Shown here: piece after piece, positions 42,001-64,000 of the stretch
How positions within the stretch are numbered: the first letter of the stretch is position 1
How the letters are laid out: every line of letters begins with the position of its first letter
DNA from: Candidatus Omnitrophota bacterium
Lineage (GTDB): Bacteria > Omnitrophota > Gorgyraeia > Gygaellales > Profunditerraquicolaceae
DNA length: 64,000 bases
Reading direction: 5' to 3'
NCBI GenBank assembly: GCA_050012075.1
Contig: JBEKHW010000001.1
Span: 132,766-196,765, forward strand
Notes under the pieces: model-generated
What the model was told of the DNA's origin: nothing
The model's input: only the letters and a program-made list of their open reading frames with translations
The model's database searches: none
Program-made: the position numbers and the translations under genes

Positions 42001-45000
42001 GCCTAAGATAATCGTCGTATTTTGCCACAAGGATGCGCCCTTCCCATTCTTTGCTGAATTGGCCTAATGCCGCGTCTACAACAACCTGCTCTTTGCCTTT
42101 AACAAGGGGATAGGAATGTTCGATCTCTCCTGCAATCACTGTTGATCCCTCTATTTTAACCTCGCTTGTTATCTCAAGGGTATTAAAGGCAGCGGAAAAA
42201 CAATTAGAGAATATCTGGCACACGCCACTGTCAGGCGCCTTTCGTGCACGTAAACGGCTGTATTCCATAACATCATTATTGTATAAGGTCTTGCGCAGGT
42301 CTTTTTCCTTCAAACACGATAACATCCTGAATATCTCTACCTCATGCCCTAACAGGCATCTTCTTGTTTCTGCGGCTGTAACAGGCTTTGCCTTCAGCGG
42401 CTCAAAAAGAGATACCAAATAAATCACTGTCGCAAGAAATGCCTCTCTGTATTCCTGCTCGCAGTTATTCCTCCTGCTTTTTAACGCCGCCTCTAAGACA
42501 GGATGTAAAGGCAGGATATTCTGGAAGGAATGCAATGCTTGTTCTGTTTCCGGATTATCCGGTAAATTAGAGCTGTCAGAGTTTACAGCAGCCATCTGTA
42601 TGCCTTTTAAGATATCTTGCGGTTTTACGGATTGGCGCCTTGTCTCTTGTTGTATCCATGAAGACAACTTGCCTGCTAAACGCATCTGTTTCACATTAAG
42701 CGGTTTTTGCCGCTGTGCCTGCTGCTTATTCTCTCTATTAATACCGTTATCAAAAATCGCCTGGATCTTCTGGTAAGGGTCAGAAGTGTTACTGCTATTC
42801 CCATCTGCAGGAGAAGAGGATGTTACACGCTTATAGCTTCCTTCCCTGACCACTAATTCTTCAAACTCTCCACCCAAGAGCGCTACGTCAACAATCGCCT
42901 CTAACGGTATCTCTACCCTTATAACCTCTCCGCCATCTTCTGCATGTTCCTTTGCGTATTCGATATGACGGGTAAAATAGGCAGGGTCTTTTAATTCTAT
43001 ATCGACCCCTTCAAAAAAGCCCTTCTGCTCCGAACCATGATATAGCCTAAACGCCCGGACATCGGGGAATTTATGCATTAAATACCAGGTGACCATCCTT
43101 TCGTATTCATGATGGCGTATCTGTATTGCATTTACTATTGTCCTTCTCTCTGTCTTCTTAAACTTCATGGCGTCAACCACGAAATATGGGCATTGCTGTA
43201 AGGCGGCTAAGCCAAGTTCGACTTTTTCTTCAAAGTTTAACTTTTCATCGATCCAATAACTGGATACATTAAATATACTGTAGCGCGTGCCCTTGACGGT
43301 TTTTTCAAGATCCAATTGCTTGCCCCTGAAAGGATCTATTCCTCCTTTTTTCTTTAGGGATTCTATTGCCTCCGATAATTCGGCCCTCCCGGTCTCTATG
43401 ACTTCGAATAACCTCATCACTGAATTAAAAATATGCGGCTCCGTAACAAGCTGTAACATGAAATAATTCCAGCGATGGGTTTCTATATTGAGAATATCGT
43501 CGCTCCAGTCATACCCTATTAATTCATCATCCAATCTCTTGGCAAGATGCTTTATCATGCTTATGAATTCTCGCCATGAATCCCCGAATTCCGCATCCAG
43601 CATAGCAAGCTTTGTAGCCCTCTCCCGGAATTGTTTCCTGCCTTTAAGCAAAACCCTAAAATCCTCGCCAGCCGGTGAACTGCCTTTATCAAACTTTGTA
43701 TTCTCGATTATGCCTGCGGTCCTCTGGCTGCCTCCCGAGCGCTCTTTATCCGATAGGGAAATAGTTATCAGGAACATATAACTGATGAACATCACATAGG
43801 CCAATTGCAAGCTAGGCGCATATTGCAATACAAAGTAGGTCAAAGGATGCGCAAAAAGGAAGATGGACCAGGCCTTAAGCGAATCCGCGTACACCCGCCC
43901 TTTCCATTCCGGGCTAAAAGGGGACAACTTTATCTTATGCCAATATGCCGAATCAAATAACCCCGTAAAGGTATGATACAGGAAGAAAAAGATAAAGGAT
44001 GTCCAGATGAACTGGTCAAATGCTATCTTAACCAAAGGATACAACCCTGCTGCCGGAATATATGCCTTAAGCATGCTATACATGAAACGTAGCAGAACCG
44101 CTGTTACTGCAAAAATAGGTATCCGGTAAGAAAGACGGTACCATAAAGGAGACACCTCTCCCGCATGGTCAGAAGTGCCTTTTATGCGGGACAAAGACCA
44201 GGCAGTAAGCTCGGTAAAAATACCCATGATGACAACGGTGATCAAAACGCTGACGGAATACGGGTATTTCTCGTCAATAAAGACCCTGAAGGCCTCAAGG
44301 GCCTGTGATACCGTTGAGAGGCCGAATATACCTAAAGACAAACCTGCCAATCCGGCTGCTATAAGCACAATAGTCAAATAATATTTCTTCTGCCAATTCT
44401 TCTTAACCTGCTCTTTATAATCACGGGCTACTTCTTTGAAAGATTTCCCGCAGATGAATGACAGCGCCAACACCCCTACTATTGTTATGGCTGCTGTTAC
44501 GCCTACGGCAACAGGTGCATTCAACAAGAAAGCGGCGATAGGAGAAGTTGACATATTCTGTAACCATGGCGCCAACAGGTTGACTCCCCAAATAGCAAAT
44601 ACACCGCTGCCTATAGCCAACAATTGTGTCCCCGACTCGCGTAAGAGGCGGTTATTCCTTTTTTCCGGCATAGCCGAGGTTGAAGCAGGAGAGCTGGATT
44701 TACCGCGGATACCGACATTGTTCCTGATTATTCTAAATAAGCGCCTCTTTGCTTTTTTGGAGCTGGCAATTAGAGTAGGCAACCTGGACGAGGGCTGCTG
44801 TAATAGTCCCCGGCTAAGAGGCAATAAAGAAGCGCCGTTAAAATCTGAAACCACTCCTCCTGCCTTAAATACAATAAACATGGAAGGAACTGCATCCCAG
44901 AGCTTTGGAGTACGATGAGTATAAGCGATCGGCATCGCAAAATTACTGCTCATTGCCACTTTAACCATATCAAAACCTTGGGTCAGCAAGGTTCTTGTAA

Positions 45001-45232: not shown

Positions 45233-45560
45233 TAGAGCGATTATAAAACCGTACTCATCTTTACCTTCCACAAAAGCCTTTGTCCCGTCAATAGGGTCAA
45301 TCACCCAGACGTATTCCGCCTCTCTTTTTGGCTCAATCCCTTCCAATTCCTCCTCTGCTATAATTCCATGCTCGGGGAATTCTTTTCTAATCAACCTGAT
45401 TGCCATCCGCTGAATTTCCTGATCGGCTTCGGTGACTATGCTGTAATCTACTTTTGCTCCCAACGACCTCTCTCCTAAAGACGATTTCTTATAATCACTC
45501 ATTATAATCTTTGCTTTTTGGGCTATTGTTCTGGCGATCTCGGCTGCCGCAGCCACAGAG
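44930..45560 (-). other. Inositol monophosphatase / FBPase (IMPase)-family unit, disrupted by the 45241-45360 shifted block
   Basis: 'SIVTEADQEIQRMAIRLIRKEFPEHG' in frame 1. 'IAEEELEG...EYVWVIDPIDGTKAFVEGKDEYGF' readable only in frame 0 (45241-45360). 'ALMRNGMPILALLYAPEW' again in frame 1. Confidence 0.55.
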
Positions 45561-48500
45561 AACGGCGTCCATTCATCTCCCTCAACCTGCGACACAGTAG
45601 CCGGAGAAGAGGCTTTGTCTTCTCGCTGCACGCTGACTATATTAGGATCTGCCTTGCCGGCCTGGATATCTCCCGGTCCCGATAATACCGCTGCCAATTC
45701 TTCGTTCAACTTTTTCAGTTCTTCCTCTAATTCTGTAAGTCTTTTCTCGATTGTTCCCCATTGTGGCGAGCCCTTCTCCCATTTCAATTGTTCTGCTCTT
45801 TTTTCTATTTCTTCTCTGACATTTCCCCTCACCCTTTCCGTGTAATCGTTAACTTTTTTCACTAAGATAGCTGTTGCCGGATGCTCTCCCAAGAGAATAT
45901 CCGGCCTAAAACCATTCGTATTCAACATCTTCAGTAATGTATCAGGAGAAGATTGTAACCCTCTAATCACCAGTACCTTGGGCGTTGTTTGTAATACTTT
46001 TACTATTTCTGTCCCTGCTTTTCCCTCCATTGCTTCTACTATGCCGGCCCATGGCTCTATTATTCCTTGTCGCGTTAATAATATTATGCTATCCAAATAC
46101 TTTTCATAAGCCGCGGGCGTAGGATTATCAAATATAATCTGGAAGCGCTGGCCTTCTTTAGCTTTTTTCTGCAAATATGCATAGAGTTGCCGCTCGAATT
46201 CTTTGATCGCTGATTTACTAAAATCCACCCTTAAATTTAAGCTCGGAAACTCTATTTTGTCTTCAGATATTATGCTCTGCTCCCAGTCTTCAATTGTAAG
46301 CTTATTCAGTCTTTCATTCTGCAAAGATTCTTCCCTAATAAATTTAGAGAAAGCTGCGGCGTAATTAGGGTCGGTAAACTTTCCGTTGTTAGGGTCTCTA
46401 CCTAAAACACCTCCCTCAAGCAAATCTCGAGGTATATGATAGGGCAATGCGATTTCAGGAAATATGGTAAGGCAGTTACCTTCGGCCTTAGCCTGCTTAA
46501 AGGCCTTTTCTAAGCCGGGCATCACCATCTTTTCAAAAACTATCTTTTCAAAATCATCTTTCCCGGGATGAAAACAATATAGAATAGTAATCGGGGAAGT
46601 CTGTTTAACAGAAGAAGCGGCTCTTTTACCAGGAGCGGCCTGGCGGCGTACCGGTACCGCTGCGTCTCCAAGTGAATCAATACCTAAAATTGCTAATACT
46701 GTGCCTATGAATTTGACCAAAAATCCCCTTCGTGAGGAAACAACTAAAGCGTGGGAGTAGATCGTTTCAGCGAATATAGTATTAAAATCATCGCTATTAC
46801 GAGAATAGGCACTAAATTCGTGGATAAAGGATATGGTAAGTTCTTTACTCTCATAGAGGTACTTTTCATTTAGGAATAATCCTTTGGCAGGGACAAGAGA
46901 ACTAAATACTTTATCAGAAGGACCAGCCCTGGTGTGGCCTGTGCGCTTAAGATATTTTATGAAAGCGGCAAGCTGAACAGGGAATTTGCTGCGTAAAATA
47001 TTCGTGGCTGCCGGATCAAGGTTTTTTTCGATTGAGCTAAAATCAATTACTTGTTGCACATCCCACTCCCTACTTATCCTGGCCTGCTCTACGGCAGCTT
47101 CGGCTTCCGAGACGCCGGGTAAGCGGCGGGCGGCATCAAAGAAAGTATTTTTTATGTCCCGATAAATCAGAGGTATCAGTATAATGGCAATAGAGATTAG
47201 CGGTGCAATAGTAAAAAGCAAGCCGATTATATACGCAGGTATATGACCAATAATACCAGCAACATTATGCCAATTTCCATCATTCTGGCAAAACGATATA
47301 AGAGCCCCACATCCTATCTTAAATAACATAAGGAGAGAAATACATCTAACAATTACACCGGGAGCTGTTTTCTTGTATTTACTGCAGCTTAGGATTAAGT
47401 AGAGTGGCAGAGAGCAAACCAGCAGCAAGAGATCCCCGGCAAGATTGAACAATACCGTCGCAACAGAAGGCCCAAGGAATCGTCCGAGCGCATTTAAGGA
47501 ACCCCACTTATCAATATTATACACAGAGGCGGGTAGATCATCGAGATCAAATGAGATAGCGCCACTGTTTCCTTGCCACAGAAGATGATGCATCGCCTTC
47601 TGTGCGAATGCAGGTGAAAATCTGAGTAAAGAAACTACTAACGCTATAGTTAAAACTATTATTAGGAGCGGAACTAGTATGTCTTTTGCTATGTCTTCCA
47701 TTAATCCTTTTTGCGCGAGGGTGGCGCGGGGCTTTCCAGACCGGGCGGTAAGGAAATCGGACGCTTCACCATAGTCCTGTATCCTTTTGGAGAATAGGCG
47801 TGTTTTCAAACTCTTTAAGGCATTCATTAAGGGCGAGGTGAGGAGGACTGGCAAACAAATAATTTGGATGGATCTTAGGGCTAAATAATAAAATAAATCT
47901 AATCTAACCTTTGCGTCTTTGACGGCCTGGAAGTAGAGCCGTAATTCCTTAGGGTGGATGAGATAATATAGGCAACTTATCAAGCAGGCAAGAAGGTGCG
48001 AGCCGGTAGCAAATTCGTTTCGCTCATGGCGGATGAGGTCATTGATAAAAATTTGGAAAGCCATGGAAGCAGGATTGCTGAGATTAAAAGGCGGAGCCCT
48101 GGCTGCTAAGGCCTTGAGAATAGCAATTTTCCCTGGGCGAGTCTTCAAATCGGCAATACTGCCGGTAACGGTCTCATCTACAAAAACAATCTTCTTTAAT
48201 ATTTTGTGGATAATGTATTTCTTAAAATTGCTGAGTTGGTCCTTATTAGCTGATACAATCTCGCCGTAAAGAGTGCCGGGGTAGGCATGCTTCTTCGTGT
48301 CCGCTGCGGCGAGAATAGGTTCCCCACCAGCCACGAAGAGGTAAACTTCTTCCATAAAATTCCGCAGCGGACGAATAATCGAAAGCGTTTTCACTTTGGC
48401 TAAAATAAAATTGAAAAGGGCTGCGGCAGAAGCCAGAACCCCACCAGCCACGGAAGAGGTGATCCAGCTTAAATCCTGCCGCAACCCGATAAAAGATTGT

Positions 48501-51500
48501 TTTATAATGTAGCTATCATAGGCATTGCTGCCCTTCCCCATTGCTGCGGGGCTGGAACCCTTCAAGACAGAACCAGGCCTTTTCTTAAATGTATCCGCCC
48601 GCGAAGAGAATATTCTATTCCAACTGTCAGGTATAGTTAGATGTTCACCTACGGAAATAATCTTGGCGGGCGCAGAACGAGTAGAATATGCCTTAAAATT
48701 ATTAAACAGTGTTTCTTGGACTTCTTCAAAGGAAGCAAACCGGCTAAAATCTATACTATTGGCCCAGGGCGGAAATTGCCACTGACCACTCTCTTTATAA
48801 ACATAGTACATAGCGGATTCTTGATAAAGGGCGGTCTTAAAACGAAATTGCACTTTAATGCCGAGCTTGCCCAGCTCTTTATGATTCAACCAGCCCTGTA
48901 TAAATAAATTTACCGCTTCAAATCCGGGAACCCGACTCTCTTTTCTTATCTTTGTTATTTGAATATTGCTAAACTTTGACTTAAGAGCTGTTTCGAGCTG
49001 CTCAGGGAATGTTGTGAGTGCGCTCGCCCTATCTTCCTGATTCATGCCGTTATCATCAATAATAAAATTAAATCCTAAAATATCATCTAAATATGTAAGC
49101 GGAGCGGCAGTAATAACAGCCCGGTGTTTCATTATCTTTTCTATAACTCTGGATATGCTTAAAGAAGCATTTTTCTTATTAACGCCTTCTATCTGTAGTA
49201 TTATTTTTTCTAACTTTATGATTAAGCTCTTATATTGTTTTATCCTTGAGAATAATTTAATGTTGTCCTTACCGGCTACAATGCTGCCCAATGTTTTGTA
49301 GACCTGGAACACCATGGTTTCCCACATCGTATCCGGCTCCCAGGCCAGTTCTTTGTTATATTCATATCTTTCTGAACTATAAAATATTTCATCAATTTTC
49401 CTTTTTTCTTTTTCGCTTAGTTGCATATTCTTTAAGATTGAGCCCAGGCTATCTAAGATTCCCTTATCAGGTTTACTCTCATACCCAAATAGCAAGGTAA
49501 GTTTCTCAAGGAGCGAAAGCAGCTCCTGCGACGCCTTCCCTCCAAAAGCATAGCAATCTCTCACATCTGAGATGGCCTTATCAAACCATATTTCAAAATC
49601 ACTGAAAGATTCGAAATAATGGGCGATATCGGCAACTTTAGAGGGCACATCCACCTGAAAGCCGGAAATATCCGTTGCGGCCGGGCTGGAACCTTTTGAA
49701 TTGGAGGCTTTTTTGCGCTTGCCCTGGCCTTTCTCACTGATGGTCTTACCGGGAATATTTTTGGCGGTAATAAAATAACTTGGCACAGTTGAGATAAGAT
49801 TAATTAGAAAATGCATCGTAATAGAAGAGACTAAAGAACCTGTTATCCAATAAACGTAAGCAAAGAAAATGCCGCTAACCCATTGAAAGATCATACTACA
49901 TTTGCCATGTGAATCAGAGAATACGTGCGCATTGCTTAATATCGCAAATAGAATACCCGAAGGCATGCCAAAAATATATGTGCCTGTTAGATTCAATAGA
50001 TCGCACCAGAACCAGCATTGTATATTAAAAAGTATCCCCCGGAATAAAACCTCCTCTATGATCGGAGCCCAAAGAGATCCCGCAATAATAAGTTTTACGG
50101 AATCTTTACGCCTGAAACTGTCTTTAAGCTTTTTCCCGGCTAAGTCATATAATATAGCCACTGCCACTAATAAGCCTAATTCTATGGGGGCTTGTACGGT
50201 AAACAAGAAACCCGCACCGAAACAAATATTCGATATTATCGAACCCCAATTTTGATAGAGAATAAACGGCAGGATAAGAGCCGGTATTAAAATATGCCTG
50301 CGTCTGATCTCCAATTCTTCTTTCTTGGTATCTTCTTTCTTAGCGAAATCGGCAATGAATCCTGTGAATTGGCGTAGTAAAAGATACGCTGCGTAGATTA
50401 ACGGTATCCCGATACCTGCGTTAAAGAATCTTAAGCCGATTACGCTGAATTTTGCAGCAATACTGCTTAAACCAGCCATGCCAATATAAATACCGCAATC
50501 TATAGCAGCAATACAGAAGATTGACATGATAGTAGCAGACATCCCTAACATAAACTTTGCCCAAGATCCCGGGGCTGCTTTTTCCAAGATCGTTTTTGTG
50601 AAGGCATTTAATTTATTTACGAGCATTCTTTCTACTTTGAACATAGCCATGCACGCTATTATTGCAATAGCCCAATCTATACCGCTTAGAGAAGGCTTAA
50701 AACAAAAATCAGTCATTGCGGAGGGACTGGAAGCTTTCGATACGGAAGCATCCCTGTTTCCTGTGGGGATCTCCGGAAGGAAGGCCTTTAATTTTGCCTG
50801 TATCCCGGCTAAATCATCTGCGGGGGTAGATTTTTCGCCAAGCGCCAGAATATTGGCGTGATATTCGCTGCGCGCCAATGCTGCCTGCCCTACGGTGTGG
50901 CAAAGGGCGCAGCGCACATTGTTAAATTTATTAGTTGCTATTGATATGCCGATACCGGTTGTGCACATTACGATACCAAACGCGCATTCGCCTGAACTGA
51001 CCAAACAGCTGACTGCCGTAGCGAATTTTGGATAATGGCAGGAATCTATATTGAATGTGCCCTGGTCCAATACAACCCAGCCTGATTTCTCAAGCTCGCT
51101 TTTTACTTTTTCTTTTAAGGCAAATGCGCCATGGTCGCCGCCGATAGCTATTTTTCCTGCTGCGCCCGGCTGCATGATTAATCCAGCTGCCGGCTTCTGC
51201 GCTACTTCTCTTTCAATTTCGCTTACTAAATTCAATCTCTGCGCGTGCCTGCCGCCCTCAAATTCTGCCAGGCGGAATTTGGCAATAAATTCTTTAGTAG
51301 CAGGATTACCTTTTACTATTACAAGGATGTTGGCGCTATTGTGCTGACGGGTTAATGCAACGGTCTCCGCGTTAAAACAGAAAGCAGCGCGTATACCAGC
51401 TTTTTTATTGGCGAACATAGTAATACCTATGGCTGTGCTTTCCGTATCGGCGATAATTATACCCCGCGCGATTTTTTCTTGCGCAATACCATCTGCCATT

Positions 51501-54500
51501 TTATTCACTACCTGCCTGAAATTATCCCGGTTGGCAGATACGCGGACAATTGGCGTAGAACGCTTACTATATTTGATGCTCCACGAGGCAGTCCTTGACT
51601 CGCCCGATTTAAGAATAACTGGGGTGGCTTCATCTATGAGACTGTTATAGAGATTAATCGCATTTGCCGCGGAGGTTGTCGGCTGGATACTGGCAACGCC
51701 CTCCGGGAAGTTAGGGTTACCTAAAGGCACGAAAAGCATTACATTCTTATATATGCTGCTTTGAGTAACATACAGATTCTCTCCGCTAAGCGGGTTAAAG
51801 AAACGGGAAATGATTTTCCTTTTCTTTGGATCAAACCCGGTAATCCCCTGCTCAAATGCACGGGTTAACGGAGTAAGCTCGCTCACATCTGTTGAACCCT
51901 TTTCTACAAACAGCGGCGGCTGGTAACGCGGGACTTGTAGCGCTTCTTTTGTATCGTGCACCTTCCAGTATTTTTTCCCGGGAACCTGCACTTCCCAGCT
52001 GCGGATATCATTCAGATAACCCCACCAATGGTCGCCAAAGCTGCAGATACGCCGTTTTGTATCTTTATTCACTACTTCGGTTATTGGCAGGAATTCATCT
52101 TCTTTGAGCCAGAGGGTGCGAGTAAGGTCAAAATTGCCGAAGTTACTGCTGATTTCCGCGGATTCGCTTGTGGAGTAGAAAAGCTTGATGTAACGCCAGC
52201 CAAACCAGCCTTTTCCTACGCTGATAAAATGCCATTTAACTTTATCCGTCATCCCGTGCAGGGCATTTGGCCCAGTTACAAGATCAGGATTATAACGCAT
52301 GGTTTTCAAACCTTGGCCGGCACTCACATTAATTTTTTGGCCATCAAATTCCGCTATCCCGTTATGTATACGGCTGGTCCAGGGGAACATAAAAGGTATG
52401 CCACCGGGAAGTGGTAACCCGGTTTTTTCATCTACCAAGCGCGTGACTTTACCTTTAGTAGCATCAAAACCCTTGTGCCAGACAATGCGCTTACCGTTCA
52501 ATACCAAATCCACAATAGTGCCGCCTAATTCAGCAACGGAAAAGTAAGAATTCTTACCGCATGATACCGTGCGGATTTTATAACCGTCATCAGAAATATG
52601 TTCCTTGTAATTCTCCTCAGGCGCGACCATTGAGGCCACTTTAACGCGTTCAAAGATAGAAGCGCCCGGCCTTCTGGAGGAAACCCCGAAGGCATTATAT
52701 GTATTTATGCACAATAACGCGGCCCCGCATCCTACGAGAGGAGTCAACCATCCCCACCATGGCAGGAGGTTAAGATACCAATAATTGAGCGGGACGACCC
52801 AACATCTTTTCCACACGCGCTCCCAGGTCTTAATAACCTGCCAAGATAAACTGTAATCCGCGTTTACCACCTCAACATTCTCAAGAGAATTTTCTCTGGC
52901 TGCTTTCCTGGCAAAATAGCCCGGTATAAATATTGAATACAGGGAAATAAGCCCCACGCCTGGTATGTAGATGATCAGCGCGCGAAGCAGATTGTAAAGA
53001 CTCCAAGTTCCTACCTGGGGGACGAAATGGCCGATACCGGCAATCAGGCCCTGCATGGCTACCCCAAGGAATAAACCCGTAACGAAAATGGTAGCTGCGC
53101 GTTTTAAAGATTGGGAGAAGCTATGCCTGGGCCCGTCGGCAATACGCATACCCACAAAATCTCCTGCGACAACCAGGGATGCAAACAACAGGATGTTGCG
53201 TAACAGCACCTGGTCCAATGCAAAAAGGTACAGCAGCGTTTCTCCTATGCCGAATAATGACAGGCCGATAGCGCCTGTGACTAGCGCAGTCAAACAAACT
53301 GCCGAAACTATCAAGCGCCGCGATGAAAGCGCTTTCGTTTCTGGGCCAACAAAATCTACGGCAGGAGAAGAAGCAACCGACCCGCCGAGCACTGCGACAA
53401 GCGACACATCCTTTATAAAATCTATTTCTTTTAATTCATTCTTGCCATAACGCCGGCCTGCTTTTTCTGTATAATAGAGATTTTCTCCTGCCTTATAAAT
53501 GCGTAGATCGGCATTCTTGCAGCGGATGATGATGTCTTCTGCTTTCTTGAGCCGGTATATCTGTAAATCAAGACTGTCGGGGAATTTATTACTTGCCCAG
53601 TCCAAGATCATAAGCGTATCCTGCAGCGGCCTGTATCTTATATGATCTATGACTCTGCCTGCGGCGCCATTTACCTCCAGCAAATTCCTTAAAGTAACTA
53701 TACAAATACCTGCTGCTGCGGCCAGATTCTCCGCGAAGGAATCTTCTTCCGGAGTAAGCCTTACGCTAATCTTAACCTTCTTCACTTTGGAAGGATCAAG
53801 AGAGAGTTCTGCCATAATCTGCTGAAGTAGGGCCCTGAGCGGATCAGGTATTACCTGTTTTTTATTTTCCTCTTCCGGAAAATAAAATCCTACGCGGGCA
53901 TTCTTTTTGTTGCGTAAATCCCAAAGAGTTAAAAGGGTTGTTTTTAAGCTGGGATGAAAGATCTCTTTACCTTGAATTACTGCCGGAGCAATCTGTAGAT
54001 AAATCTTCTGGGCTACATTTTTGCCTATGATTTTTACTGCGCGCGGGATTTTAAGGGTGAATACGCCGATCCCGGAAAAGGTCTCGATATCTCTGGGCCT
54101 TATATTATTAAACATTGCCCGGGCGGCTTTAAACTCCTGCTGCCGGATAAGCTCCTTATAGAGACAGTTGGCGCGGATTATTGTCTGCCTTGCCGGACTT
54201 ATCTTCAATAAACCAAGTAATAACCTTTGTAATTTTGTTTTTTCCTTGCCCCGCGCCTTTATTTCTTTGGCCAGATAAAAGATGGTCATAATAGAGCCTA
54301 TCCTGTCCTGGAAAAGCGCAAAAAGCCCGGTCTGTTTTATGATATAGCAGGCAAAGTCAATCTCCTTCTTACTCGCTGCGACTAACCGCTTCAATAAGGC
54401 CTGCTGCGCGCCCTCAGCTATCTCCTGGTTGAATTCTCCTCTTAGTTTTTCCTGGAATGACCGGGATATGACCTCTACAATGCCTAATGCGTGCTGATGC

Positions 54501-57500
54501 TTCGCCTGGTATTTCTTAAACACCTTACCTATATTAAGTATGTATTCACCTAACAAAGGCACAAGCTCGTCCAAAGGAGTAAGGGATGTCCTGACTATTT
54601 CTTCGGTATCCAGGTCCCTTAACGCAAGGCGTCCTTTTTCATTCCAGGTCTTAAGATATGTTCCGGAGACTTCATATCCTTGCCTTGCGTCTATGTTCTC
54701 AAATATAATTCTCGTGGTGTAGATATCCCGTACCGTCAATGACTGGTTTGACTTACGCGTGGCCAGATGGGTAAGGGTGAGCTGGAAACCACTCATTGCA
54801 TCAATGTCTTTGAATATTATCTCTTTGGTTTTTACCGCTCTTAAGGTAAGATGGCCGCCTGCTTTACGCGTAGCCAGATGCGTAAGCGTCCACGCATAAT
54901 CCCATGTAGCGTCTATGCCGCAAGCTGCTTCCCCGTCCTGAAATACAGGGTTTTCTGCAGGGTCAAATAGCCATACGCGCTTGGATACGCCTTTGACAAG
55001 CTGATAGCCGGCTTCATTTCTCTCAATCTGCCTGACTTTTTCTTTGATTATATTTTCAAACTTCGCGATTAACGCCTCATCTGTAATTACAATCGCGGCA
55101 GGAGAAGAGCCGGCTTGCTTCGTTTTCTCAACACTAGGACGCCTATTCTGATCTTTAAAGGAAGCGGTTAAAATTGCGCCTAATAATAATACATAAAGCG
55201 CCATCCCTGTGGGCACTGCCCAAGATAGATAAGAACCGGCAGGAGGGCTTTCGTTCAACTTATCTTCTACCGCGATTTTGTACGCCTTAACGTCAAATAT
55301 CTTCTTATTGAAATTAACGTACATCGGCTCAAGCTCCGAAACCTGCTCCCAGGTATTGCCTCCTAAAATCCTATTTATCTCTTTATTGTCTCCGGTTAAA
55401 TACAGATATTCTAAAACCTTAAACCCTCTTATACGGGCTGCATCAATATCCTTTAATCCTGACCTTTCACCGATTTTTTCTGCAAGATAAATGACGGCTT
55501 CCTGCTGGCATGGATAGCAGGAGATATCCACAGAACTTAAGACCGAAGATAAATCACCATTTACAATCAGCGCTCTTTCAATCAGGGTGGTCATCCCCTC
55601 ATCCAGTATCTCGTTTTGGAACCCTGCGGCATTAATATGCAGGGCCTCGTGTAGATGAGTCCTCTTAATCCGTTCTGCAGAATCTTTTATCAATAACGGA
55701 TAAATGAATTCTTTACGGCTGACCCCGGGATAACTTCTGCCAGTGAGATTCTCTTCCGGCTTATCAATAAATACCGGCTGCGGCTTCTTGTATCTCAAAC
55801 CGAAAGATTCAATATATTTCCTGGCTATTTCATCGCCTTCCCTGACTATGTTATCTTCTAAAACAGAGGCAGGCCTTGAATTATTCCGAGCATAAACTGC
55901 GATATCAACTTTTTGCAGATTATAGAGCAGAAGAAATGCCGCGCCTATCTCAATCGCCAAGAGGGCAACGAGCAGCAAGGCGTTGGAAATTGGGCTGTCT
56001 TTTTTACCAGTTTTTGTCCGCGCAGCATCTGAGGGCACCGTTGCTGGGCTGCTAACTATTCCTGCTTGGTTTAACAGGCCAGGCTCCGCCCTATGGACTG
56101 CAGGCGCCTGGATTTCAACAAAGGTTTCTCCGGAATATGTGTAATTCGCCAGGAATCCTGTGATAGGTGGAGAGTTTTCAAGTATTTCCAGCCATTCAAT
56201 GAGCTGCCCCTGTAAAGCTCCTGACTCCGGCCCTATATAGGTAGACATATTGGTATCTTCATATATTGAGCCCACGTGAGCGGTTATGACAATAATGAGC
56301 GAATTGGATTCTTTCTTGAAGGCGGTTTCAACCGGTATTGCCGGGGTTGAGGAAGTTTTTGTGCAGACATTACAGCCTAAATCCTGCTGTTGACTATTTA
56401 CAAACGGCCCAACAGTAGCGGGCGAAGAACCGCCCCGCTCTGCTATCAGCCGCACAGCTTCGATTGCCGCGGGTGTAGCAATCTGTGTCCCCGGTAACGT
56501 TACGGTTGCTGCGCCAAATAAGCTCGCCTGATGCAGCGCCTCTTCTTCGCTTCCGCCTTTAGCTAACTTAAGCACAAACCCTGCGTTTGCGGAATCACCG
56601 GCTCCAACAGGGCTTACCACTCTAACCTTGATAGCCGGTTCTTTTATAACCCTACCATCCCGCAATACCAGTATCATTCCTTCTATATCCTGCTTTACCA
56701 GGACACCGCGTAAATTATATTTCTTTATGAGCTCGCGGGAATATTCCTCTATCTCATCCGCGTTTAATTTCTCTCTGGATAAAACACCTCCACTGGCAAA
56801 CCCCATTTGTTCCAATATCGTGATAAATTCTTCTTTATTAGGAGCGATTATATCAGAGGGCTCTTTTCTTTCTACTTGCGCCAACACTGCTTCTGTTTCT
56901 GCTTTGGTAGTGGACCCCCTCTGGAAGTCCAGAAGCGCCTGGATATTATGCCTATGAGCGATCTCTACGATAGATTTATAAATACGCGGCGTTTCGTCCG
57001 ATGCAATCTGCCCTCCTACGGTTGTCACCAGCCACTTACAATTGGGAGCGCCGGACAGCATCCTGTCAACTTCGTTTAATAAATTATCTGCGACCTCCGA
57101 GGAAATCACGCCTCCTAAACTAGTCATTCCGGCAATAAGCTCACCGCCTATAATATGGTTAATAAGTATCTTGTGCGCGGTTTGTGTGGGCACAAAAGAA
57201 GCTATGATATGCTCATTCGCTAATTTCCGGCAGCGCATATCAGCAATCTCGTCTCTTCCCTTAAATCCCACAAAAGCAATATATTCATTCTGATTTGACA
57301 CTGCCTTGGCTGTATTTGCCGCTCCCCCGCCTGCATCAAACTGAACATCAACCAATTCTAATGTGCCGTCGCCCTTATCCTTCCAAACAAAGGCAATATC
57401 CGCTGCTCCGCATATATTGACTCCCATAACCATCGTTTTATTTAATAAACCTTCTCCGGAGAACTCCGGTTCTCTAGTGTCGGGTGATTGCTCTTTCCTT

Positions 57501-57541
57501 AACTTGATAAACCTAATTGGCGCATCCGTTAACCTTGCCAT
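45332..57541 (-). CDS. Giant multidomain protein, fragment 2, in the same frame as fragment 1. Contains PfkB kinase-like, TM plus HExxH, multi-TM, mutarotase-like, tandem RpiB-like and CPBP protease-like units, more membrane blocks, and the N-terminal part of the IMPase-like unit. The start is unresolved. The first in-frame ATG is at 57539-57541, but a GSSPA junction motif (57662-57676) lies in-frame between the TAG and that ATG, so the frame probably does not really restart. Ends at TGA 45332-45334, which sits inside a +1-shifted block.
   Basis: Frame = 1 mod 3 verified at 57478, 57598, 56620, 56431, 56053, 55111, 53374, 52420, 51160, 50734, 50086, 49693, 48559, 47698 and 45613. Confidence 0.5.
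47100..47700 (-). other. Multi-TM membrane block
   Basis: 'EDIAKDILVPLLIIVLTIALVVSLLRF' (47641-47698, verified) plus further hydrophobic helices downstream. Confidence 0.35.
49750..50700 (-). other. CPBP-family (CAAX protease-like) intramembrane protease-like unit with extra TM helices
   Basis: 'IAGSLWAPIIEEVLFRG' EExxxR motif (50037-50086, verified), 'FAILSNAH', 'SITMHFLINL' HxxxN. Flanked by ASSPS (50720-50734) and GSSPA (49679-49693). Confidence 0.5.
50830..51700 (-). other. Tandem ribose-5-phosphate isomerase B (RpiB/LacAB)-like units
   Basis: 'KIAIGGDHGAFALKEKVKSELEKSGWVVLDQGTF...CTTGIGISIATNKFNNVRCALCHTV' (51121-51160, verified), preceded by a second partial RpiB-like copy. Confidence 0.6.
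51850..52700 (-). other. Aldose-1-epimerase / YeaD-type mutarotase-like unit
   Basis: 'GLPLPGGIPFMFPWTSRIHN' (52361-52420, verified) resembles the YeaD 'RGGIPICWPWFG' motif. Confidence 0.4.
52950..53350 (-). other. Multi-pass transmembrane block (about 4-6 helices)
   Basis: Consecutive hydrophobic ~20-aa segments in the frame translation, e.g. 'LIVSAVCLTALVTGAIGLSLFGI' and 'ATIFVTGLFLGVAMQGLIAGIG'. Preceded by ASSPA at 53360-53374. Confidence 0.4.
54720..54900 (-). repeat. Short tandem repeat (~90 nt x2) encoding 'TLTHLATRK...LTLR' peptide repeats
   Basis: 'cgcgtggccagatgggtaagggtgag' and 'cgcgtagccagatgcgtaagcgtcca' repeat on the + strand. Confidence 0.4.
55150..55990 (-). other. Membrane-anchored HExxH zinc-metallopeptidase-like unit
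   Basis: TM helix 'ISNALLLVALLAIEIGAAFLLLY' (55925-55990, verified). 'THLHEALHIN' HExxH (55630-55660, verified). Second hydrophobic helix 'SYLSWAVPTGMALYVLLLGAILTA' near 55150-55230. Confidence 0.4.
56440..57540 (-). other. PfkB-family sugar kinase-like unit (1-phosphofructokinase / tagatose-6-P kinase type)
   Basis: 'NKTMVMGVNICGA...GGGAANTAKAV' N-terminal glycine-rich motif and 'VVSPVGAGDSANAGFV' (56581-56620, verified). Followed by GGSSPATV at 56417-56431. Confidence 0.55.
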
Positions 57542-57697
57542 AATTCCATTTCTCTTGCTTACTTCCAGGCCCCTTACTGCCTTTGTTGCTATCTTTAAGG
57601 ACTCCGCGGTTATCGCTCCCTGCAAATATTCAGCCAGTTCTTTTTTAACAGTATCAACAATCTGCTGGAGAGCTTCCTGCCCGGGCACTGCTGCCGG

Positions 57698-60600
57698 GCT
57701 AGAAGCTTTCTTGCCGGCTTCTGCTAAAATATGGGCCGGGTTCATCGTAGCGATATCGGCCCCGGATGCAAGCAGCCGGTCAAGCAGGTTCTCGTTATCG
57801 GTAAATCCGATGATACGGATATCGTTACCCAGGATATCACGCACCTCTTGGGCTATGTAATGGCTGTCATCTACCAAAGCGCTCTGCTTGAGAGGAATAT
57901 TGTGTTTATTAAGCAAATCACCGATAGCGATGATCTTTTCCCTGCTAGAGGTGCCCCTTCTTTTCTCGTGAAATTCCCCAAAGAGAGGAATATTCTCCCA
58001 GATGGGCTGCGTCCTTTCCGGAATGTTGGATGTAGCCAGGAAGACTTTGATACCCCTCTGTTTTAAATCCAGGATCAATTCTTTAATGCCGGGGGTAAGC
58101 AGGCTCTCCGAATCAGTATCTAAAATCTTTTGCGTCCGCTGCCATCTTTCTTTTTCAAAAATATTCAGATATTCCGCGGGAGAAAGGAATTGCCTTGTGG
58201 ATTGGGATGCCTTGGCCTGCCTTATCAGATCACCTATCGCCCCTATTTCCGGTAGCCCCCGCGTATACTCATCATAATAAGCCCTGCCAGCCCTCAGATT
58301 TTGCTCTGTCCTCTCTAACTTCAGGATTTCAAGATATATCGTATCTACAAAGCAGTCCCGCGTCAGCCCTATATTAATGACAGTGCCGTCCATATCAAAA
58401 ACCACTGCCTTGAGATTACGGACCCATTCCGGAACAGCAAATGGAGCGGCCGGAGAAGAAGCACATTCTTCTTTGATTTGCTTCCATAATTCGTCTGCTT
58501 GCGCCTGGGTATGGCTGAAACCTAACTGCTCATTTAGGCATAACCTTGCAATGCTTATCTTACCCAGGCCTTTAATATCTATATACTTCGTTAAAATATC
58601 TCTATTAGTTTGGCCATCTTCAACTTTAAATGTTTCTCTCAGTATTTCTGTGATGAATTTTTCTTTCCCCTGTTCAGAGATAAGAGGCTTTCCCTTGAGA
58701 TTCTGAAATGCAGCTGCTCTTGTTTTAAAGGACAATTTTTCGGAAGAAATACCCTCGAACTGTTCTGCCCTATCACTCCCCTCCAAGGGTATCGTCATAC
58801 CGACATGTGCAGGTACAATCGTAGCAGGCAGGTTGCCATCGACTAACCTGTTGACTAATGCTTGTTTTGCTTCTTCTGGGGCGTGGACCAAGACAAGGTT
58901 CTTGGGATTTATCTTGCCGATAACGTACGCCAGGCCTCTTTGGTCGGCATGAGCCCTAAAGAGGAATTTCCTGACCTCGGCGTTTACCTGTATAATCGCT
59001 TCGCCTTCACCAGACGGAATAGCTATTTTCTTTCCCTTCTGAAGATTGAGGATCTGTGCCGCAGGGCTTTCTTCCGTGGCATAACCTACGAAAAAGATGG
59101 CATTAGCAGGATTACCGGCCATCTGCGTAAGATACAACAGGGAACAGCCTCCCACAAACATTCCTGAACCGGCAATTATAATATGCGGCTCTTTTAGTTC
59201 AAGAATCGACTTTCTTCTGTCGCGGCCTACCGCAATAATATTACTGCCATCCTCGAATAAATATTCTGAGCCACGTACACGGTATCTTTTGTAAAGCCCG
59301 GCCGTCCTTATCGCAAGGCCGTCAATATAGATATTGGCCTGAGGAATAATACCCTTTCGTTGATATTCCTGTAAAATAAGGGCTATCTCCGTTGACCTTC
59401 CTATCGCAAAAGCAGGGACCAGGATAGAGCCACCCCTGCGCAAAACCTCTGCTACCGAAGCGGCAAATTCTTCTTTTACGGATTGACGCGGCGGCAGATT
59501 TGCTTCTTTGCCATAAAGCGCCTCCATGATCAATAAGTCGATTTCTGCCGTAGATAGCCGCATAGAATCCACCGAATTCTGTTTTTTCACGGAAATATCC
59601 CCGGAATAAAAAATGTTACCGTAAGGAGTGGCTATGATTACCGAGGCTGCGCCAAGGATATGCCCGGCAGGAATAAAGAGCACCTTGATGTCTTCCGAAA
59701 GCCTGTACCATCTTCCAAAATCAACGTATCTAAAACGCTTTGAAATATCCGCAAACTCTTTTCTATTAAACTCATTAGTGAGTAAAATCCTGGCTAAGCC
59801 AAAAGTAGGAGCTGTAGCAAGTATCTTGGCATCCGGCAACTGCCTTGCTGCCTCTATCAGTGAGCCGGAATGGTCAAAATGGGCATGGGTAATGATTATA
59901 TGGCCTATCCGGCCTTCTACATTGCTTAGGTCAAGGGGCTCCAGGGTTTTGGGGTCTGCTCCGATATCTAAAAGCAACTTTTCGCCGGCAATATCTGCGA
60001 GAAATGCGCTCTTACCCGGCTCATCCACTCCGCCTAAAGGCGTTATCTTTATTTTATCTCTCTTCAAAGGAGATTCATCTTCAAGCAGCGCCCGGCACAA
60101 GCCATCATAAGATTCCTGCACGCTCCTATCATTCTCAAAGAAAGATTTTCCGGCCACAAACACATTGGCCCCTGCCTTGGCTGCCTTTCTTATGGTGAAA
60201 CGGTTAATGCCACCGTCTATTACAATATCTCCGTCAAAATGATACTCATTCCTTAATATCCCGATATTCCTTACCGCTATGCCTTGCTGGTCAAACTTCT
60301 GGCCGCCCCTGCCCGGATAAACGCTCATCTGCAATACTCTATCGATGTACTTACGGTTTTCCATGATGAACCTGCAAATAGCATGGATATCGGCTTCGGG
60401 GGATGGGTTTAGAGCAAGTGCGGCAATCCCGTCGTAGGCCTTAATCAACTTAAGGCAATCCAATAAGCGCCCTTTATCTTCAAACCCCTCCCGGTGCAGA
60501 GTAATCATCTTGGTTCTGAATAAGATATAGTCCCGCACCAGGCGCTCAAAGCTGCGGGAGATCGCCCGGCTATCTGCCATTACCATCAGGTGCGCATCAA

Positions 60601-63600
60601 ACATTGTGCCGGTATCAGCCTGCCGAATAATCCTCCATACCCCCCTCGGAGTCAATTCCTTTAAAGTATCTTGCGCATTTGCCTGGACTATGGCGCTGCC
60701 TACGCCATTATTGCTGTCTATTACATCTATGTGAATGATAACCGGAATGGGGCCTTTCTTTCCTATCTTTATTGCCTGAAGCGCTTTCTGGCGCCTATCT
60801 GCCTTTGGAACACTGAGCACCGACGGCTCAATGATAAATCTCTGGGCTGTCGGAGAACTTGCCTTGTAAAGAGCCGGAGCCGGTTGTCTTGGATATAATG
60901 AACCGGCCGCTACGGTGGACTTATTTAACTTTTCCAGCTGCGCCTGTGCAGCCGCGTAGTCCAATACATTGCCGCCTAAATTTAGTAGAAGATCGCGAAG
61001 GCGATTAGTATAAAAATGTATCCCAAGCGCGCCCAAAAGATTATTGACTTCTTCATGTATCAGGCCACCTGTAACAGCAATGAATTCATGTTTAATAATA
61101 TCTTCACTGCTCATCTTCTTTAATTTAGGAGAAAGCTTCATTGTCACAGAAGATAGATGTTTGCCCTGATGTTTTATGGAGGCTTCCATAAGCAATTCGT
61201 GAACCGCTATTAAAACAGGGTGGCCCTTTGCTTCTTCAGGAAGCGAGGCGGCGTTTCTCATTCTTTTTTGGATTTGATCTATTATCAAACCTTCATGTAC
61301 TATTATTGCTCTTCCCTGTGGATGGTTATACAAACCTTGCAGGCAAAGCGGCAATCTTTCAACGCCGCCTATCTCCTGAAGCATCTCTCCCGTTATCACG
61401 CAAGCACCGCAGTCAAATTTCTCACTTTTTGTTGTATATACCTGAACTCCTTTGGCGATCTCCGGTTTACTTATACCGTGCGTGATTCTCGCAATATCCT
61501 CTTCTAACTGCTTACGAAAATCCTCTACTATATCCAGGCCTTTTGTTAAAGATTCGACGGCATTACCATTAATTAAATCTTTTACCAAGTCCTTTACCTC
61601 TTCTCTATCTTTCCCATCTGCAGCGAAATCTAAGCCATCCTGCCCGGATTTACTTTCCAGATTATTACCGGCCGCTGCGGCAAACTTTGCCCCCACCAGC
61701 CACGGAGAGGATAGCAAAGTCTCTAAAATACGCCACAGCGGCCGGATTATTGAAAGCGCTTTCACTTTAAGCCGTAAAAATATGCTTACTGAATTATCAC
61801 AAGATAAAACGGGTGAAGCAGGTGAAGACCCGGCATAACCCGCAGCGCGGCCATTCATCGCAAACTCGGTAAGAACCGGGGCATCTTGCGCAAGATAGTC
61901 ATAAGAAGGCACGGGAGCTTTAGTCACAACATACTTTTCAATATTCAGGATAAAATCCCTCCATTCAGAACTGGCTTTTATAATCTCTCTTAAGAAGCCT
62001 TGCCAGGAGCTTCTTAAGCCATATTCCTTGGGGGTCACGTGTAGATGGCTCCAATACCGGCCTTGCTGGTCGTGTTCTCCGCCTACCATAGGACTCATCT
62101 GCCCCTTATGGAGGAGCCATTCCCGTAAATCAATCATCACCGGAACCCCAAAATAGGCTGCCAAGATTAACAGTTCAATAAATCCTTTGACCGGGCCTCC
62201 CAACGTTGCCAATGACCTCTCGTCATAGTTGGAAGGATAGATGAGCAGTTCCGGCATCCTGATAATGGCATATTTTAATGACTCAACTAAATATCTTCCG
62301 GCATCATTATTACCTTCAACCATTCTCCTGTAGTCGCCGTAAACATTAGGATAATAAACCTTTACTTCGACCCCGGCCTCTTTTGCCAGCCGCAGCAATT
62401 CTTTTCTGTCTGCCTCTTCATACGCCTCCATGATAAATTTAAATTTCTTGCCTTTTACGGAAGCAAATATCATGGACCAGGGCTCTGGCTGCTTTGCCAG
62501 ATAATCTGGGGAGAAATATGTGCCTAAGTTCCGTTTTAAAAGAAGGTGCGGCAGGTCAGCACGCGCTCCTATCGCACCTGAATTAATATGCTCCTGGATA
62601 GAAGTAATATAATATTCCATTACTTCCGTGTTAAAAGGATTGAGGAATACCTGGTCAACATTGGGGACCCCGGCGAATCCTACTAAATGTTTGACGTATA
62701 CCGGCCTGGGCTGCTGGCCATCCGCAACCCTTATCACGCAAGAGCCGCCGTTTTTACTGACTAAATCATCAACAAACCGCTGCTGCATGATTGCAGCAGC
62801 GCGCCTTCGGTACATCTCACCCTGTCTGGCATCTAATTCGGTATACATGGTCCAGCGATAATTTTTCTCCGTAATGGCGTCAGGGGATAACCACGGGATG
62901 AAATCAACAATAACGCCCATTCCTAATTCCGCGGCACGTCCGGTAAATGCCCGCAATGCCTGCCTAGGTTCATCTCCGTTACACAATTGAGGATCGATCT
63001 CCCGCATGCTATATATCGAAAAACTATTACCGTGACAGTCGGTTAATGTAATATCTCCTATCGTAGCTTTCTTGGTCAGATAATTGTTTACGGAGATGGT
63101 AGGGTAGTTCGGTTTTTCTCCGGTGAGGATATACTGCGCTGCGGCAGGAACCCGATGCAGCGATTTTGATATTAGTCCCTTCTTGTACAGATTATAAATA
63201 TAAACTTCTCCTACGCCGCTATCTGCCAATATAGGCAAAATCTCTTCGGCTTTATTGAAACTGTTTTCATAAATAACTGCCCCGCTCTTTGGATCGACCA
63301 CTGACCCGATATCAGCTAAGTTCATAGCAACCGTCAATTCCTTGATTTGATGGCCGTTGCTTAACGCCTGATCTTTTAAAGGAGATGATCCTACCTGGCT
63401 ATTTTGATGGGCTGCGGCAGAAAGAGAGCCCCCACCAGCCACGGAGAGGTAATCCTTTTCTACATTAATGTTTTTATTTCTATCTCTCTGCACAAAGCCA
63501 TTCTCCGAACTTGCCTTTACTGTCGTCGGCGAAGAGCCGTTTGAGTTATTTCCCTGGAAGACCGTGTTTCTAAGCACCTCCCATGTTAAACCTCCCTTAA

Positions 63601-64000
63601 TATTTATTTTAATATTCCTGTACTCACCCCACCCTTTGTAGATACGCAAATAACCGTTATGGATATGCAAGGGAATTATAAAAAGGAGTTCCTTTTTCAT
63701 TCTTTCATCTTTAAATACAGAAGATAATTCTTCGAATTCTTTGATACAACCTTCGCTGTCTAGCATCCAAGACTTATTGGCTGCGGCAACTGCTTCGTAA
63801 GGATCGTTATGCAGGAAATAGTTGCCTGATCCAAACTCTTTTTTAAATTTATCAACCATAAAACTATTCTGCTCGTGGTAATTAGTCAGCCAAAGGTGGG
63901 ACATTTCCTCTAACAACTGGAGCAGGAATTCTTTTGACGACTCTGCTTTTATTAAAACAGCTTTATCTTCCAAATAGGCTATAGCTCCTACAGTTCCTTT
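57698..64000 (-). CDS. Giant multidomain protein, fragment 1. Its 5' end lies beyond the window. Contains GH13-like, ribulose-phosphate-3-epimerase-like, beta-CASP MBL RNase-like and HAD-like units. Ends at an in-frame TAG (57698-57700), possibly an artefact.
   Basis: Minus frame (codon starts = 1 mod 3) translated by hand at 63841-64000, 62701-62820, 60713-60753, 59858-59905 and 58377-58470. All are open and protein-like. TAG lies at 57698-57700. Confidence 0.6.
57720..58440 (-). other. HAD-superfamily hydrolase-like unit
   Basis: 'KAVVFDMDGTVINIG' DxDGT motif I (58377-58410, verified), 'KVFLATSNIP', 'IIAIGDLLN'. Preceded by ASSPA at 58448-58462. Confidence 0.5.
58800..60080 (-). other. Beta-CASP metallo-beta-lactamase ribonuclease-like unit (RNase J / CPSF73-like)
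   Basis: 'IIITHAHFDHSGSL' HxHxDH motif (59858-59905, verified), downstream 'FYSGDIS', 'ILVPAFAIGRSTEI', 'RAHADQRGL' (58931-58957). Confidence 0.6.
60150..60770 (-). other. Ribulose-phosphate 3-epimerase-like unit
   Basis: Motifs 'GPIPVIIHIDVIDS' (60713-60753, verified), 'MFDAHLMV', 'LQMSVYPGRGGQKF' and 'DGGINRFTIRKAAKAGANVFVAGKSFF' (60194-60217), in RPE order. Confidence 0.6.
61832..63376 (-). other. Possible GH13-like (alpha-amylase superfamily) TIM-barrel unit (low confidence)
   Basis: Translation contains 'ELGMGVIVDFIPWLSPDA' (62881-62930), resembling GH13 region I, and 'GGSCVIRVADG' (62701-62760), resembling region II. The unit is flanked by GSSPL (63377-63391) and GSSPA (61817-61831). 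Confidence 0.3.

Follow-up and report, generated by a model that had tools for sequence, protein, structure and literature searches.

Predicted protease modules and a strict SSPA junction peptide in a giant open reading frame of an Omnitrophota bacterium

We analysed a stretch of 64,000 nucleotides from a Candidatus Omnitrophota bacterium (GenBank assembly GCA_050012075.1, contig JBEKHW010000001.1, positions 132,766 to 196,765; hereafter the window), which is spanned by a giant open reading frame (ORF) with a recurrent SSPA peptide, and in it two units with protease-type motifs, a HExxH unit and a CPBP/Rce1-like unit (CPBP unit). The region appears to encode two protease-family modules, probably catalytically competent, of a giant membrane-anchored multi-module ORF. 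The first module would be a domain of ~235 amino acids (aa) between two helices, facing the extracytoplasmic side and most likely acting as a zinc endopeptidase on extracytoplasmic substrates. The second would be a complete CPBP/Rce1-like intramembrane protease of the glutamic type, with a predicted cytoplasmic C-terminus. The original prediction had proposed both as in-cis candidates for a processing enzyme, should the xSSPx motifs be cleavage sites. The protease part of that proposal stood, both units belonging to protease-type families and having the catalytic residues in alignment, while the suggested role in xSSPx cutting was not supported. We suggest, giving it about even chances, that both modules are passengers, each acting on its own substrates, and that any cleavage of the junctions would be mainly due to another cytoplasm-side protease.

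The enclosing stop-free frame (2..64000, minus strand, frame 0 of the reverse complement) is open over 21,333 codons, without a stop, and extends beyond the window on either side; the remaining frames of the window have 599-1,625 stops each. It contains 44 SSP junction motifs and 45 between-motif stretches. Residue i of the frame corresponds to plus-strand positions 64000-3(i-1) down to 64001-3i, and all window features given below are on the minus strand.

The HExxH unit (aa 2650-2967, 55100..56053) is flanked by IVSSPAT and AGSSPAA, and its order is junction, basic stretch, transmembrane (TM) helix, domain of ~235 aa, TM helix, basic stretch, junction. The first membrane helix, predicted earlier at 55925-55990, was found at 55925..55981 (aa 2674-2692, Kyte-Doolittle 2.71), and the second was located by the hydropathy scan at 55163..55219 (aa 2928-2946). 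The HEALH sequence, placed by the original prediction at 55630-55660, lies at 55637..55651 (aa 2784-2788) and provides two putative zinc-binding His residues and the putative catalytic Glu on a predicted helix (model residues 87-102). It is followed by LDEGMTT (aa 2799-2805, 55586..55606), in which E2801, 12 residues past the second His, is the putative third metal ligand on the predicted helix 109-124. LTGD (aa 2868-2871, 55388..55399) is found within a conserved C-terminal signature, Y-x-T-G-D...G...W.

The protease claim is carried by homology. The bare HExxH pattern was observed twice in the frame (0.38 expected) and the bare EExxxR pattern 16 times (7.2 expected), and neither goes beyond chance. 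The second HExxH, HEVLH (aa 9055-9059, 36824..36838), is in an unannotated unit of 1,028 aa with no family match and no hit to the hidden Markov model (HMM) of the HExxH family, and is probably a chance occurrence. The same HMM detected no second copy of the HExxH domain in the window, and blastp inside the window detected no paralogue of the HExxH unit or the CPBP unit.

When 1.84 billion representative proteins were searched exhaustively with HMMER, the HExxH unit was found to have eight distant homologues (E 1.4e-9 to 1e-3, 24-30% identity), mutually related at E 1e-7 to 1e-25. The alignment of the nine sequences (window and eight homologues; 19-27% identity to the window sequence) has 10 invariant columns. 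Conservation of HExxH...E, which the original prediction had proposed to look for, was evident: both His residues and the downstream Glu are invariant in all nine sequences and the catalytic Glu is kept in eight, the exception being the protein P0003 with HQGLH. Missing catalytic residues had been named as the result that would speak against a protease; such residues are present in both the HExxH and the CPBP unit. The downstream Glu is 12-16 residues past HExxH, in the motif L-x-E-G-[MI]-[TA]-E, where the L and E are invariant in nine of nine; the E, G, and M of LxEGM are invariant in a subset of five sequences. Its context is similar to (W)L-N-E-G-F-A, the motif that supplies the third ligand in M1 and Peptidase_MA_2 enzymes. 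The C-terminal signature of the family comes after the Glu motif. We propose that the HExxH unit is probably a member of a new, rare, unannotated family of gluzincin-type peptidases, with the activity predicted from the conserved residues.

The family is rare and was not matched by curated models. For the HExxH unit and its eight homologues, no Pfam, NCBIfam, or PHROGs peptidase family was matched, the best being M56 with E 0.22 in one homologue. Word-index searches with the HExxH unit, the CPBP unit, and the HExxH family profile returned nothing, or P0008 alone, and locus scans of genome contigs (twice) and metagenome contigs with single units found no relatives. When the trimmed HExxH-family alignment was used as the scan query, only four loci were detected (L007-L010), namely the P0005 contig (L007), two loci encoding ordinary-sized proteins (L008 and L009), and a 1.4-kb fragment (L010).

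The AlphaFold2 (AF2) model of the HExxH domain obtained with the alignment had a predicted local distance difference test score (pLDDT) of 80.4 and a predicted template modelling score (pTM) of 0.80, with HExxH and the Glu on consecutive helices; the single-sequence model (pLDDT 36) was unusable. The AF2 fold had no significant match among solved and viral structures, and the top viral matches, themselves non-significant, were enriched for zincins (M61, lethal factor, IrrE-like). Searches of the Protein Data Bank (PDB) with the sequences of the HExxH unit and the CPBP unit, and with the CPBP profile, gave nothing meaningful. With the HExxH family profile, the sole PDB sequence hit was Zn5, a de novo designed zinc protease (PDB 11ce; bioRxiv 10.1101/2025.11.20.689622), at a marginal E 0.021. 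Zn5 has HEAYH-x13-EG, the same ligand arrangement; this likeness is convergent or motif-level and marginal, and we do not take it as a sign of homology.

The CPBP unit (aa 4424-4773, 49682..50731) is predicted to be polytopic, has eight hydrophobic segments (Kyte-Doolittle >= 1.5), and is flanked by KASSPSA and KGSSPAA. Pfam PF02517 (Rce1-like) matched aa 4635-4736 (49793..50098) with E 1.4e-12 and 48.1 bits against the cut-off of 22.4, over profile positions 5-93 of 93. All catalytic motifs of the family are intact, EEVLFR (EExxxR, motif 1; aa 4649-4654, 50039..50056), FSDSH (FxxxH, motif 2; aa 4694-4698, 49907..49921), and HFLIN (HxxxN, motif 3; aa 4730-4734, 49799..49813), and they align with WEEFAFR, FALSH, and HMFYN of the CPBP domain of P0003, respectively. 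EEVLFRG had been reported at 50037-50086 and was identified at 50036-50056 (aa 4649-4655). The CPBP unit and the P0003 CPBP (60.7 bits in Pfam) have ~30% identity.

The specific NCBIfam CPBP subfamilies were all below cut-off for the CPBP unit: MrtJ scored 26.6 vs 75 and ABC-permease/CPBP 24.6 vs 435, and the remaining two, myxosortase and PEP-CTERM CAAX-related, accounted for scores of 14.6 vs 100 and 14.4 vs 81. Homologues of the unit were not returned by the word-index search, no exhaustive search having been run on it. The CPBP unit adds a new member to the CPBP family, divergent yet complete, and is a predicted protease. Pfam recognised no peptidase in the window besides CPBP, neither C39, S8, nor another family.

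The junction peptide is strongly over-represented. The SSP tripeptide was observed 44 times in the frame, against 3.6 expected, and [GA]SSPA 27 times, against 0.05 expected. The sites are nearly always [KR]-[GA]-S-S-P-A, with spacing of 14-1,949 aa, and they include 24 G-S sites and 12 A-S sites. The Ser, Pro, and Ala codons at the SSP sites vary synonymously, and therefore selection appears to act on the peptide and not on the DNA; a DNA element was rejected for the same reason. An internal translation start was also rejected, as Met is rarely found after the motif.

The Pfam domains of ribulose-phosphate 3-epimerase (RPE), HAD, and inositol monophosphatase (IMPase) start 10-19 aa past a motif, at profile positions 2-10, and the unit-closing domains (PfkB, IMPase, CPBP) end ~16-37 aa ahead of the next motif. 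Because the domains start and end so close to the motifs, many of the 45 between-motif stretches, of which the HExxH and CPBP units are two, look like whole proteins strung in one chain; a recognised Pfam domain generally takes up its stretch to within ~10-20 aa of the motif. The literature search detected no paper mentioning a GSSPA-type junction and no paper on polyproteins in Omnitrophota.

Known cleavage systems were considered for this peptide. Signal peptidase I cutting between the second Ser and the Pro of [GA]-S-S-P is unlikely, since Pro at position +1 blocks signal peptidase I. Double-glycine-type cleavage by C39 after G-S would fit the 24 G-S sites but not the 12 A-S sites, and C39 was not found in the window.

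The predicted topology bears on which module could reach the junctions. In the HExxH unit, the first helix has four K/R residues in the flank before it and two after it, and the second has five K/R in the flank after it and one before it. Because the junction-facing flanks are K/R-rich, the positive-inside rule places the HExxH domain outside; both ends of the unit are probably cytoplasmic and the domain is probably outside the cytoplasmic membrane. Signal-peptide-like N-termini were found in five homologues (P0001, P0004, P0005, P0007, and the 860-aa L008 protein). The other membrane modules of the window have mostly even helix counts and, where a terminal helix is near a junction, K/R-rich junction-facing flanks.

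The C-terminal flank of the CPBP unit is strongly K/R-rich, and the C-terminus is predicted to be cytoplasmic; the short N-terminal flank is not K/R-rich and gives no clear signal. Most junctions sit between soluble cytoplasmic-type enzymes without membrane helices (e.g., HAD and PfkB). In the simplest reading, all SSPA junctions appear to be cytoplasmic. With the junctions predicted to be in the cytoplasm and the HExxH domain outside, it follows that an ectodomain zincin could not reach them.

Most occurrences of the HExxH-family domain are in very large proteins of many modules, and two of these proteins have strict repeated motifs of their own. P0005 is a complete gene product of 2,677 aa (L002, 2412-10445), which also contains an HPr domain. 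It has nine [DN]xAMx[GAR] sites (0.09 expected), all at or downstream of the HExxH domain, and the DNA of the motif is nearly identical between copies (GAC GCG GCG ATG GTG GG). P0001 is complete, with 1,862 aa (L004, 10001-15589) and three [DN]xAMx[GAR] sites (0.05 expected), and its layout of motif, basic stretch, TM, HExxH domain, and motif mirrors the window. P0003 covers the first 3,794 aa, from the N-terminus, of a further giant ORF that runs off its contig (L003, GCA_041653435.1, JBAZFM010000036.1). Its HExxH-family domain, which has lost the catalytic Glu, is followed by CPBP ~400 aa downstream and by a thioredoxin domain, with the module order as in the window. A repeated junction-like motif was not found in the 3,794 aa of P0003, and no repeated motif was found in P0006, P0007, the L008 protein, or the stand-alone members. 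That strict, lineage-specific junction peptides recur in HExxH-domain proteins is suggestive, as a correlation seen in only a few sequences.

A conserved N-terminal domain of ~380 aa lies behind the signal peptide in four of the five signal-peptide-bearing HExxH-family proteins. It was found in P0001, P0005, and P0007 and at the loci L004, L006, and L008, with the signature LP.PG...PF.PP.L.G...DPL.FDF, 30-50% identity, and no Pfam match.

We considered whether one of the two modules could be the junction protease. If the CPBP unit were the in-cis processing enzyme, its active site, membrane-embedded and open to the cytoplasm as in Rce1, would cut [KR][GA]SSPA and free the modules. As the sole Pfam-recognised peptidase in the 21,333 aa, with all of its catalytic motifs intact, a strongly K/R-rich C-terminal flank, and a downstream junction predicted to be cytoplasmic, it is a natural candidate. 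It also recurs next to the HExxH-family domain in P0003, and the junction motif is strict enough for a recognition site. However, the known substrates of CPBP proteins, such as Rce1, MroQ, and the sorting proteases of the Mrt type, are short termini close to the membrane, unlike most junctions here, which are between soluble enzymes and hundreds of residues from any membrane helix. Furthermore, P0003 has CPBP but lacks the repeated motif, CPBP genes are common in bacteria and one in 45 stretches may be a passenger, and the unit is under all specific NCBIfam CPBP subfamily cut-offs. We think this role distinctly unlikely.

The other possibility, that the HExxH module cuts the junctions as a zincin whose specificity co-evolves with the lineage peptide (SSPA here, [DN]xAMxG in P0001 and P0005), would agree with the conserved catalytic residues, with the nine motif sites of P0005, all at or after its HExxH domain, and with the three sites of P0001 in a layout like that of the window. 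It is opposed by the predicted extracytoplasmic position of the domain and cytoplasmic position of the junctions, by the E to Q change in P0003, by P0006, P0007, the L008 protein, and the stand-alone members, which have no repeated motif, and by a peptidase not confirmed at fold level, and we judge it highly improbable. By topology, the CPBP unit is the more plausible junction protease of the two, though this would be an unprecedented job for the CPBP family. The wider proposal, that the ORF encodes a cellular polyprotein with 45 or more modules, which its own CPBP or zincin-like module cuts at [KR][GA]SSPA, with peptide and specificity co-evolving, seems to us very unlikely.

It is also unlikely, in our estimate, that the HExxH unit is not a peptidase at all, being instead a metal-binding or structural domain, with the junction as an uncleaved linker or modification site. 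This would account for the lack of a Pfam, NCBIfam, or PHROGs peptidase family match and of a significant structural match, for the atypically short ligand spacing, and for the designed protein as the sole, marginal PDB sequence hit. On the other hand, three of the 10 invariant columns are exactly the H, H, and E of the gluzincin signature and the catalytic Glu is kept in eight of nine sequences, the ligands are on consecutive predicted helices as in zincins, and zincins are enriched among the top, non-significant viral fold matches.

We favour the passenger reading, in which each module has its own substrates. If junction cleavage takes place, the ectodomain zincin would be unlikely as the general processing enzyme and CPBP could at most process the membrane-near junctions. 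The bulk of the processing would more likely fall to another protease on the cytoplasmic side, either located elsewhere in the ORF (as proposed in the literature for C39 and S8) or acting in trans. Several points weigh against this proposal. The window yielded no further protease, which leaves this other enzyme hypothetical. The predicted topology comes from the positive-inside rule and a crude hydropathy scan. The repeated motif flanking the HExxH domain in P0001 and P0005 hints at a link between the domain and the junction motifs. As for the module itself, the zincin assignment is by motif conservation alone, the AF2 fold being without a significant structural match, and the HExxH-to-Glu spacing of 12 is shorter than in the classical gluzincins known to us.

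The CPBP unit resembles known CPBP proteins (Rce1, Staphylococcus aureus MroQ, Mrt) in having EExxxR, FxxxH, and HxxxN, apparently on successive hydrophobic segments (crude Kyte-Doolittle scan), and in its size of ~350 aa, that of a stand-alone CPBP. It differs from them in being embedded in a >64-kb frame and not encoded by a separate gene.

The modelled HExxH domain would be similar to the gluzincins of clan MA(E) (thermolysin M4, M1, Peptidase_MA_2; also M56 and M48), with HExxH on a helix and the conserved Glu on the next, and like BlaR1 (M56) and HtpX (M48) it would be anchored by flanking membrane helices. Unlike those gluzincins, it has no curated family match, a spacer of 12-16 residues, no significant fold match, and a predicted extracytoplasmic position, and it is very rare. 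The pairing of a putative HExxH protease with CPBP recalls Ste24 plus Rce1, which we take as a lead only.

Published Omnitrophota giant ORFs (archaeovorins and the 'multi-enzyme metabolic cluster' class) encode many Pfam enzymes and membrane helices on one polypeptide. The window resembles them in its >64-kb frame, hydrophobic segments, and many unrelated Pfam enzymes. For these proteins, C39 and S8 domains near the termini were proposed as processing enzymes, with the cleavage hypothesised, and a 2023 preprint stated that information on cleavage points was absent and that this blocked further analysis. Our window differs in the strict [KR][GA]SSPA peptide that delimits modules, no junction or cleavage motif being reported in that literature. 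The published C39 and S8 candidates were not found in this window; likewise no SecA DEAD-like or C39 peptidase domain was detected within it, and as the frame extends past both ends, such domains may be present beyond it.

The arrangement also recalls viral polyproteins (picornavirus 3C, flavivirus NS2B-NS3), in which whole-protein modules share one frame with a short strict motif and motif-flanked proteases. Here, in contrast, the frame is a cellular-type gene of metabolic, membrane, and DNA-binding modules, and the candidate proteases are membrane or ecto enzymes and not soluble chymotrypsin-like ones.

These results touch the question of whether giant Omnitrophota-type proteins (up to ~147,000 aa) exist as one chain or as cut pieces. 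Kizina et al. 2022 reportedly included proteomics of a giant protein, and a 2026 preprint covers 5,761 proteins with a length of 10,000 aa or more. The window supplies a strict peptide that is a candidate junction or cleavage site, two protease-family modules inside the ORF whose putative catalytic residues are defined, and a rare unannotated HExxH...E family, and the three together make the cleavage question directly testable. The predicted topology narrows the candidates, as the zincin probably lies across the membrane from the junctions. If the giant protein were cut by itself at the junctions, it would be the first bacterial self-processing polyprotein system and would provide giant proteins of the Omnitrophota type with the cleavage points they lack so far. 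Should neither module take part, both would be ordinary passengers, and CPBP would simply extend a very large family. Giant bacterial ORFs are already known to contain peptidase modules, and the CPBP and HExxH pair with SSPA junctions adds to these.

The rest of the frame contains ~20 distinct non-overlapping Pfam domain types. The enzyme modules are RPE, MBL/beta-CASP, HAD, PfkB, aldose-1-epimerase, RpiB, IMPase, and formyltransferase, and the signalling, DNA-binding, and other modules are HATPase_c, TPR, GlnD, sigma-70 region 4, RNA polymerase (RNAP) alpha CTD, HTH, and SNF2 helicase. Several polytopic membrane blocks are also present. We counted 37 hydrophobic segments in the frame at Kyte-Doolittle >= 1.6, some of them false positives within soluble domains. 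Large parts of the frame have no family match.

Two units separate the protease candidates. The unit of aa 2965-3546 (53363..55108) is a soluble stretch that matches no family. It includes a short internal repeat, a tandem of two copies of ~35 aa with the pattern THLATRK...LT.R...IIF.(D/N)IDA (aa 3036-3107, 54680-54895). The unit of aa 3544-4426 (50723..53371) begins with a polytopic membrane domain and continues with an aldose-1-epimerase-like domain and two RpiB/LacAB-like segments, without an internal junction motif. These two segments are adjacent and partial (aa 4149-4394, 50819-51556), covering profile positions ~28-138 and then ~1-111, which suggests a permuted or duplicated isomerase.

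Some domain boundaries are without a junction motif. RPE and the MBL/beta-CASP (RNase J-like) domain are in one unit (aa 1048-1850, 58451-60859) with no SSP between them. Two pairs of internal paralogous modules, to which no function was assigned, are the only sizeable duplications inside the frame: aa 9535-9860 vs aa 20658-20996, with 31% identity over 284 aa, and aa 17823-18789 vs aa 18790-20377, with 42% identity over 266 aa.

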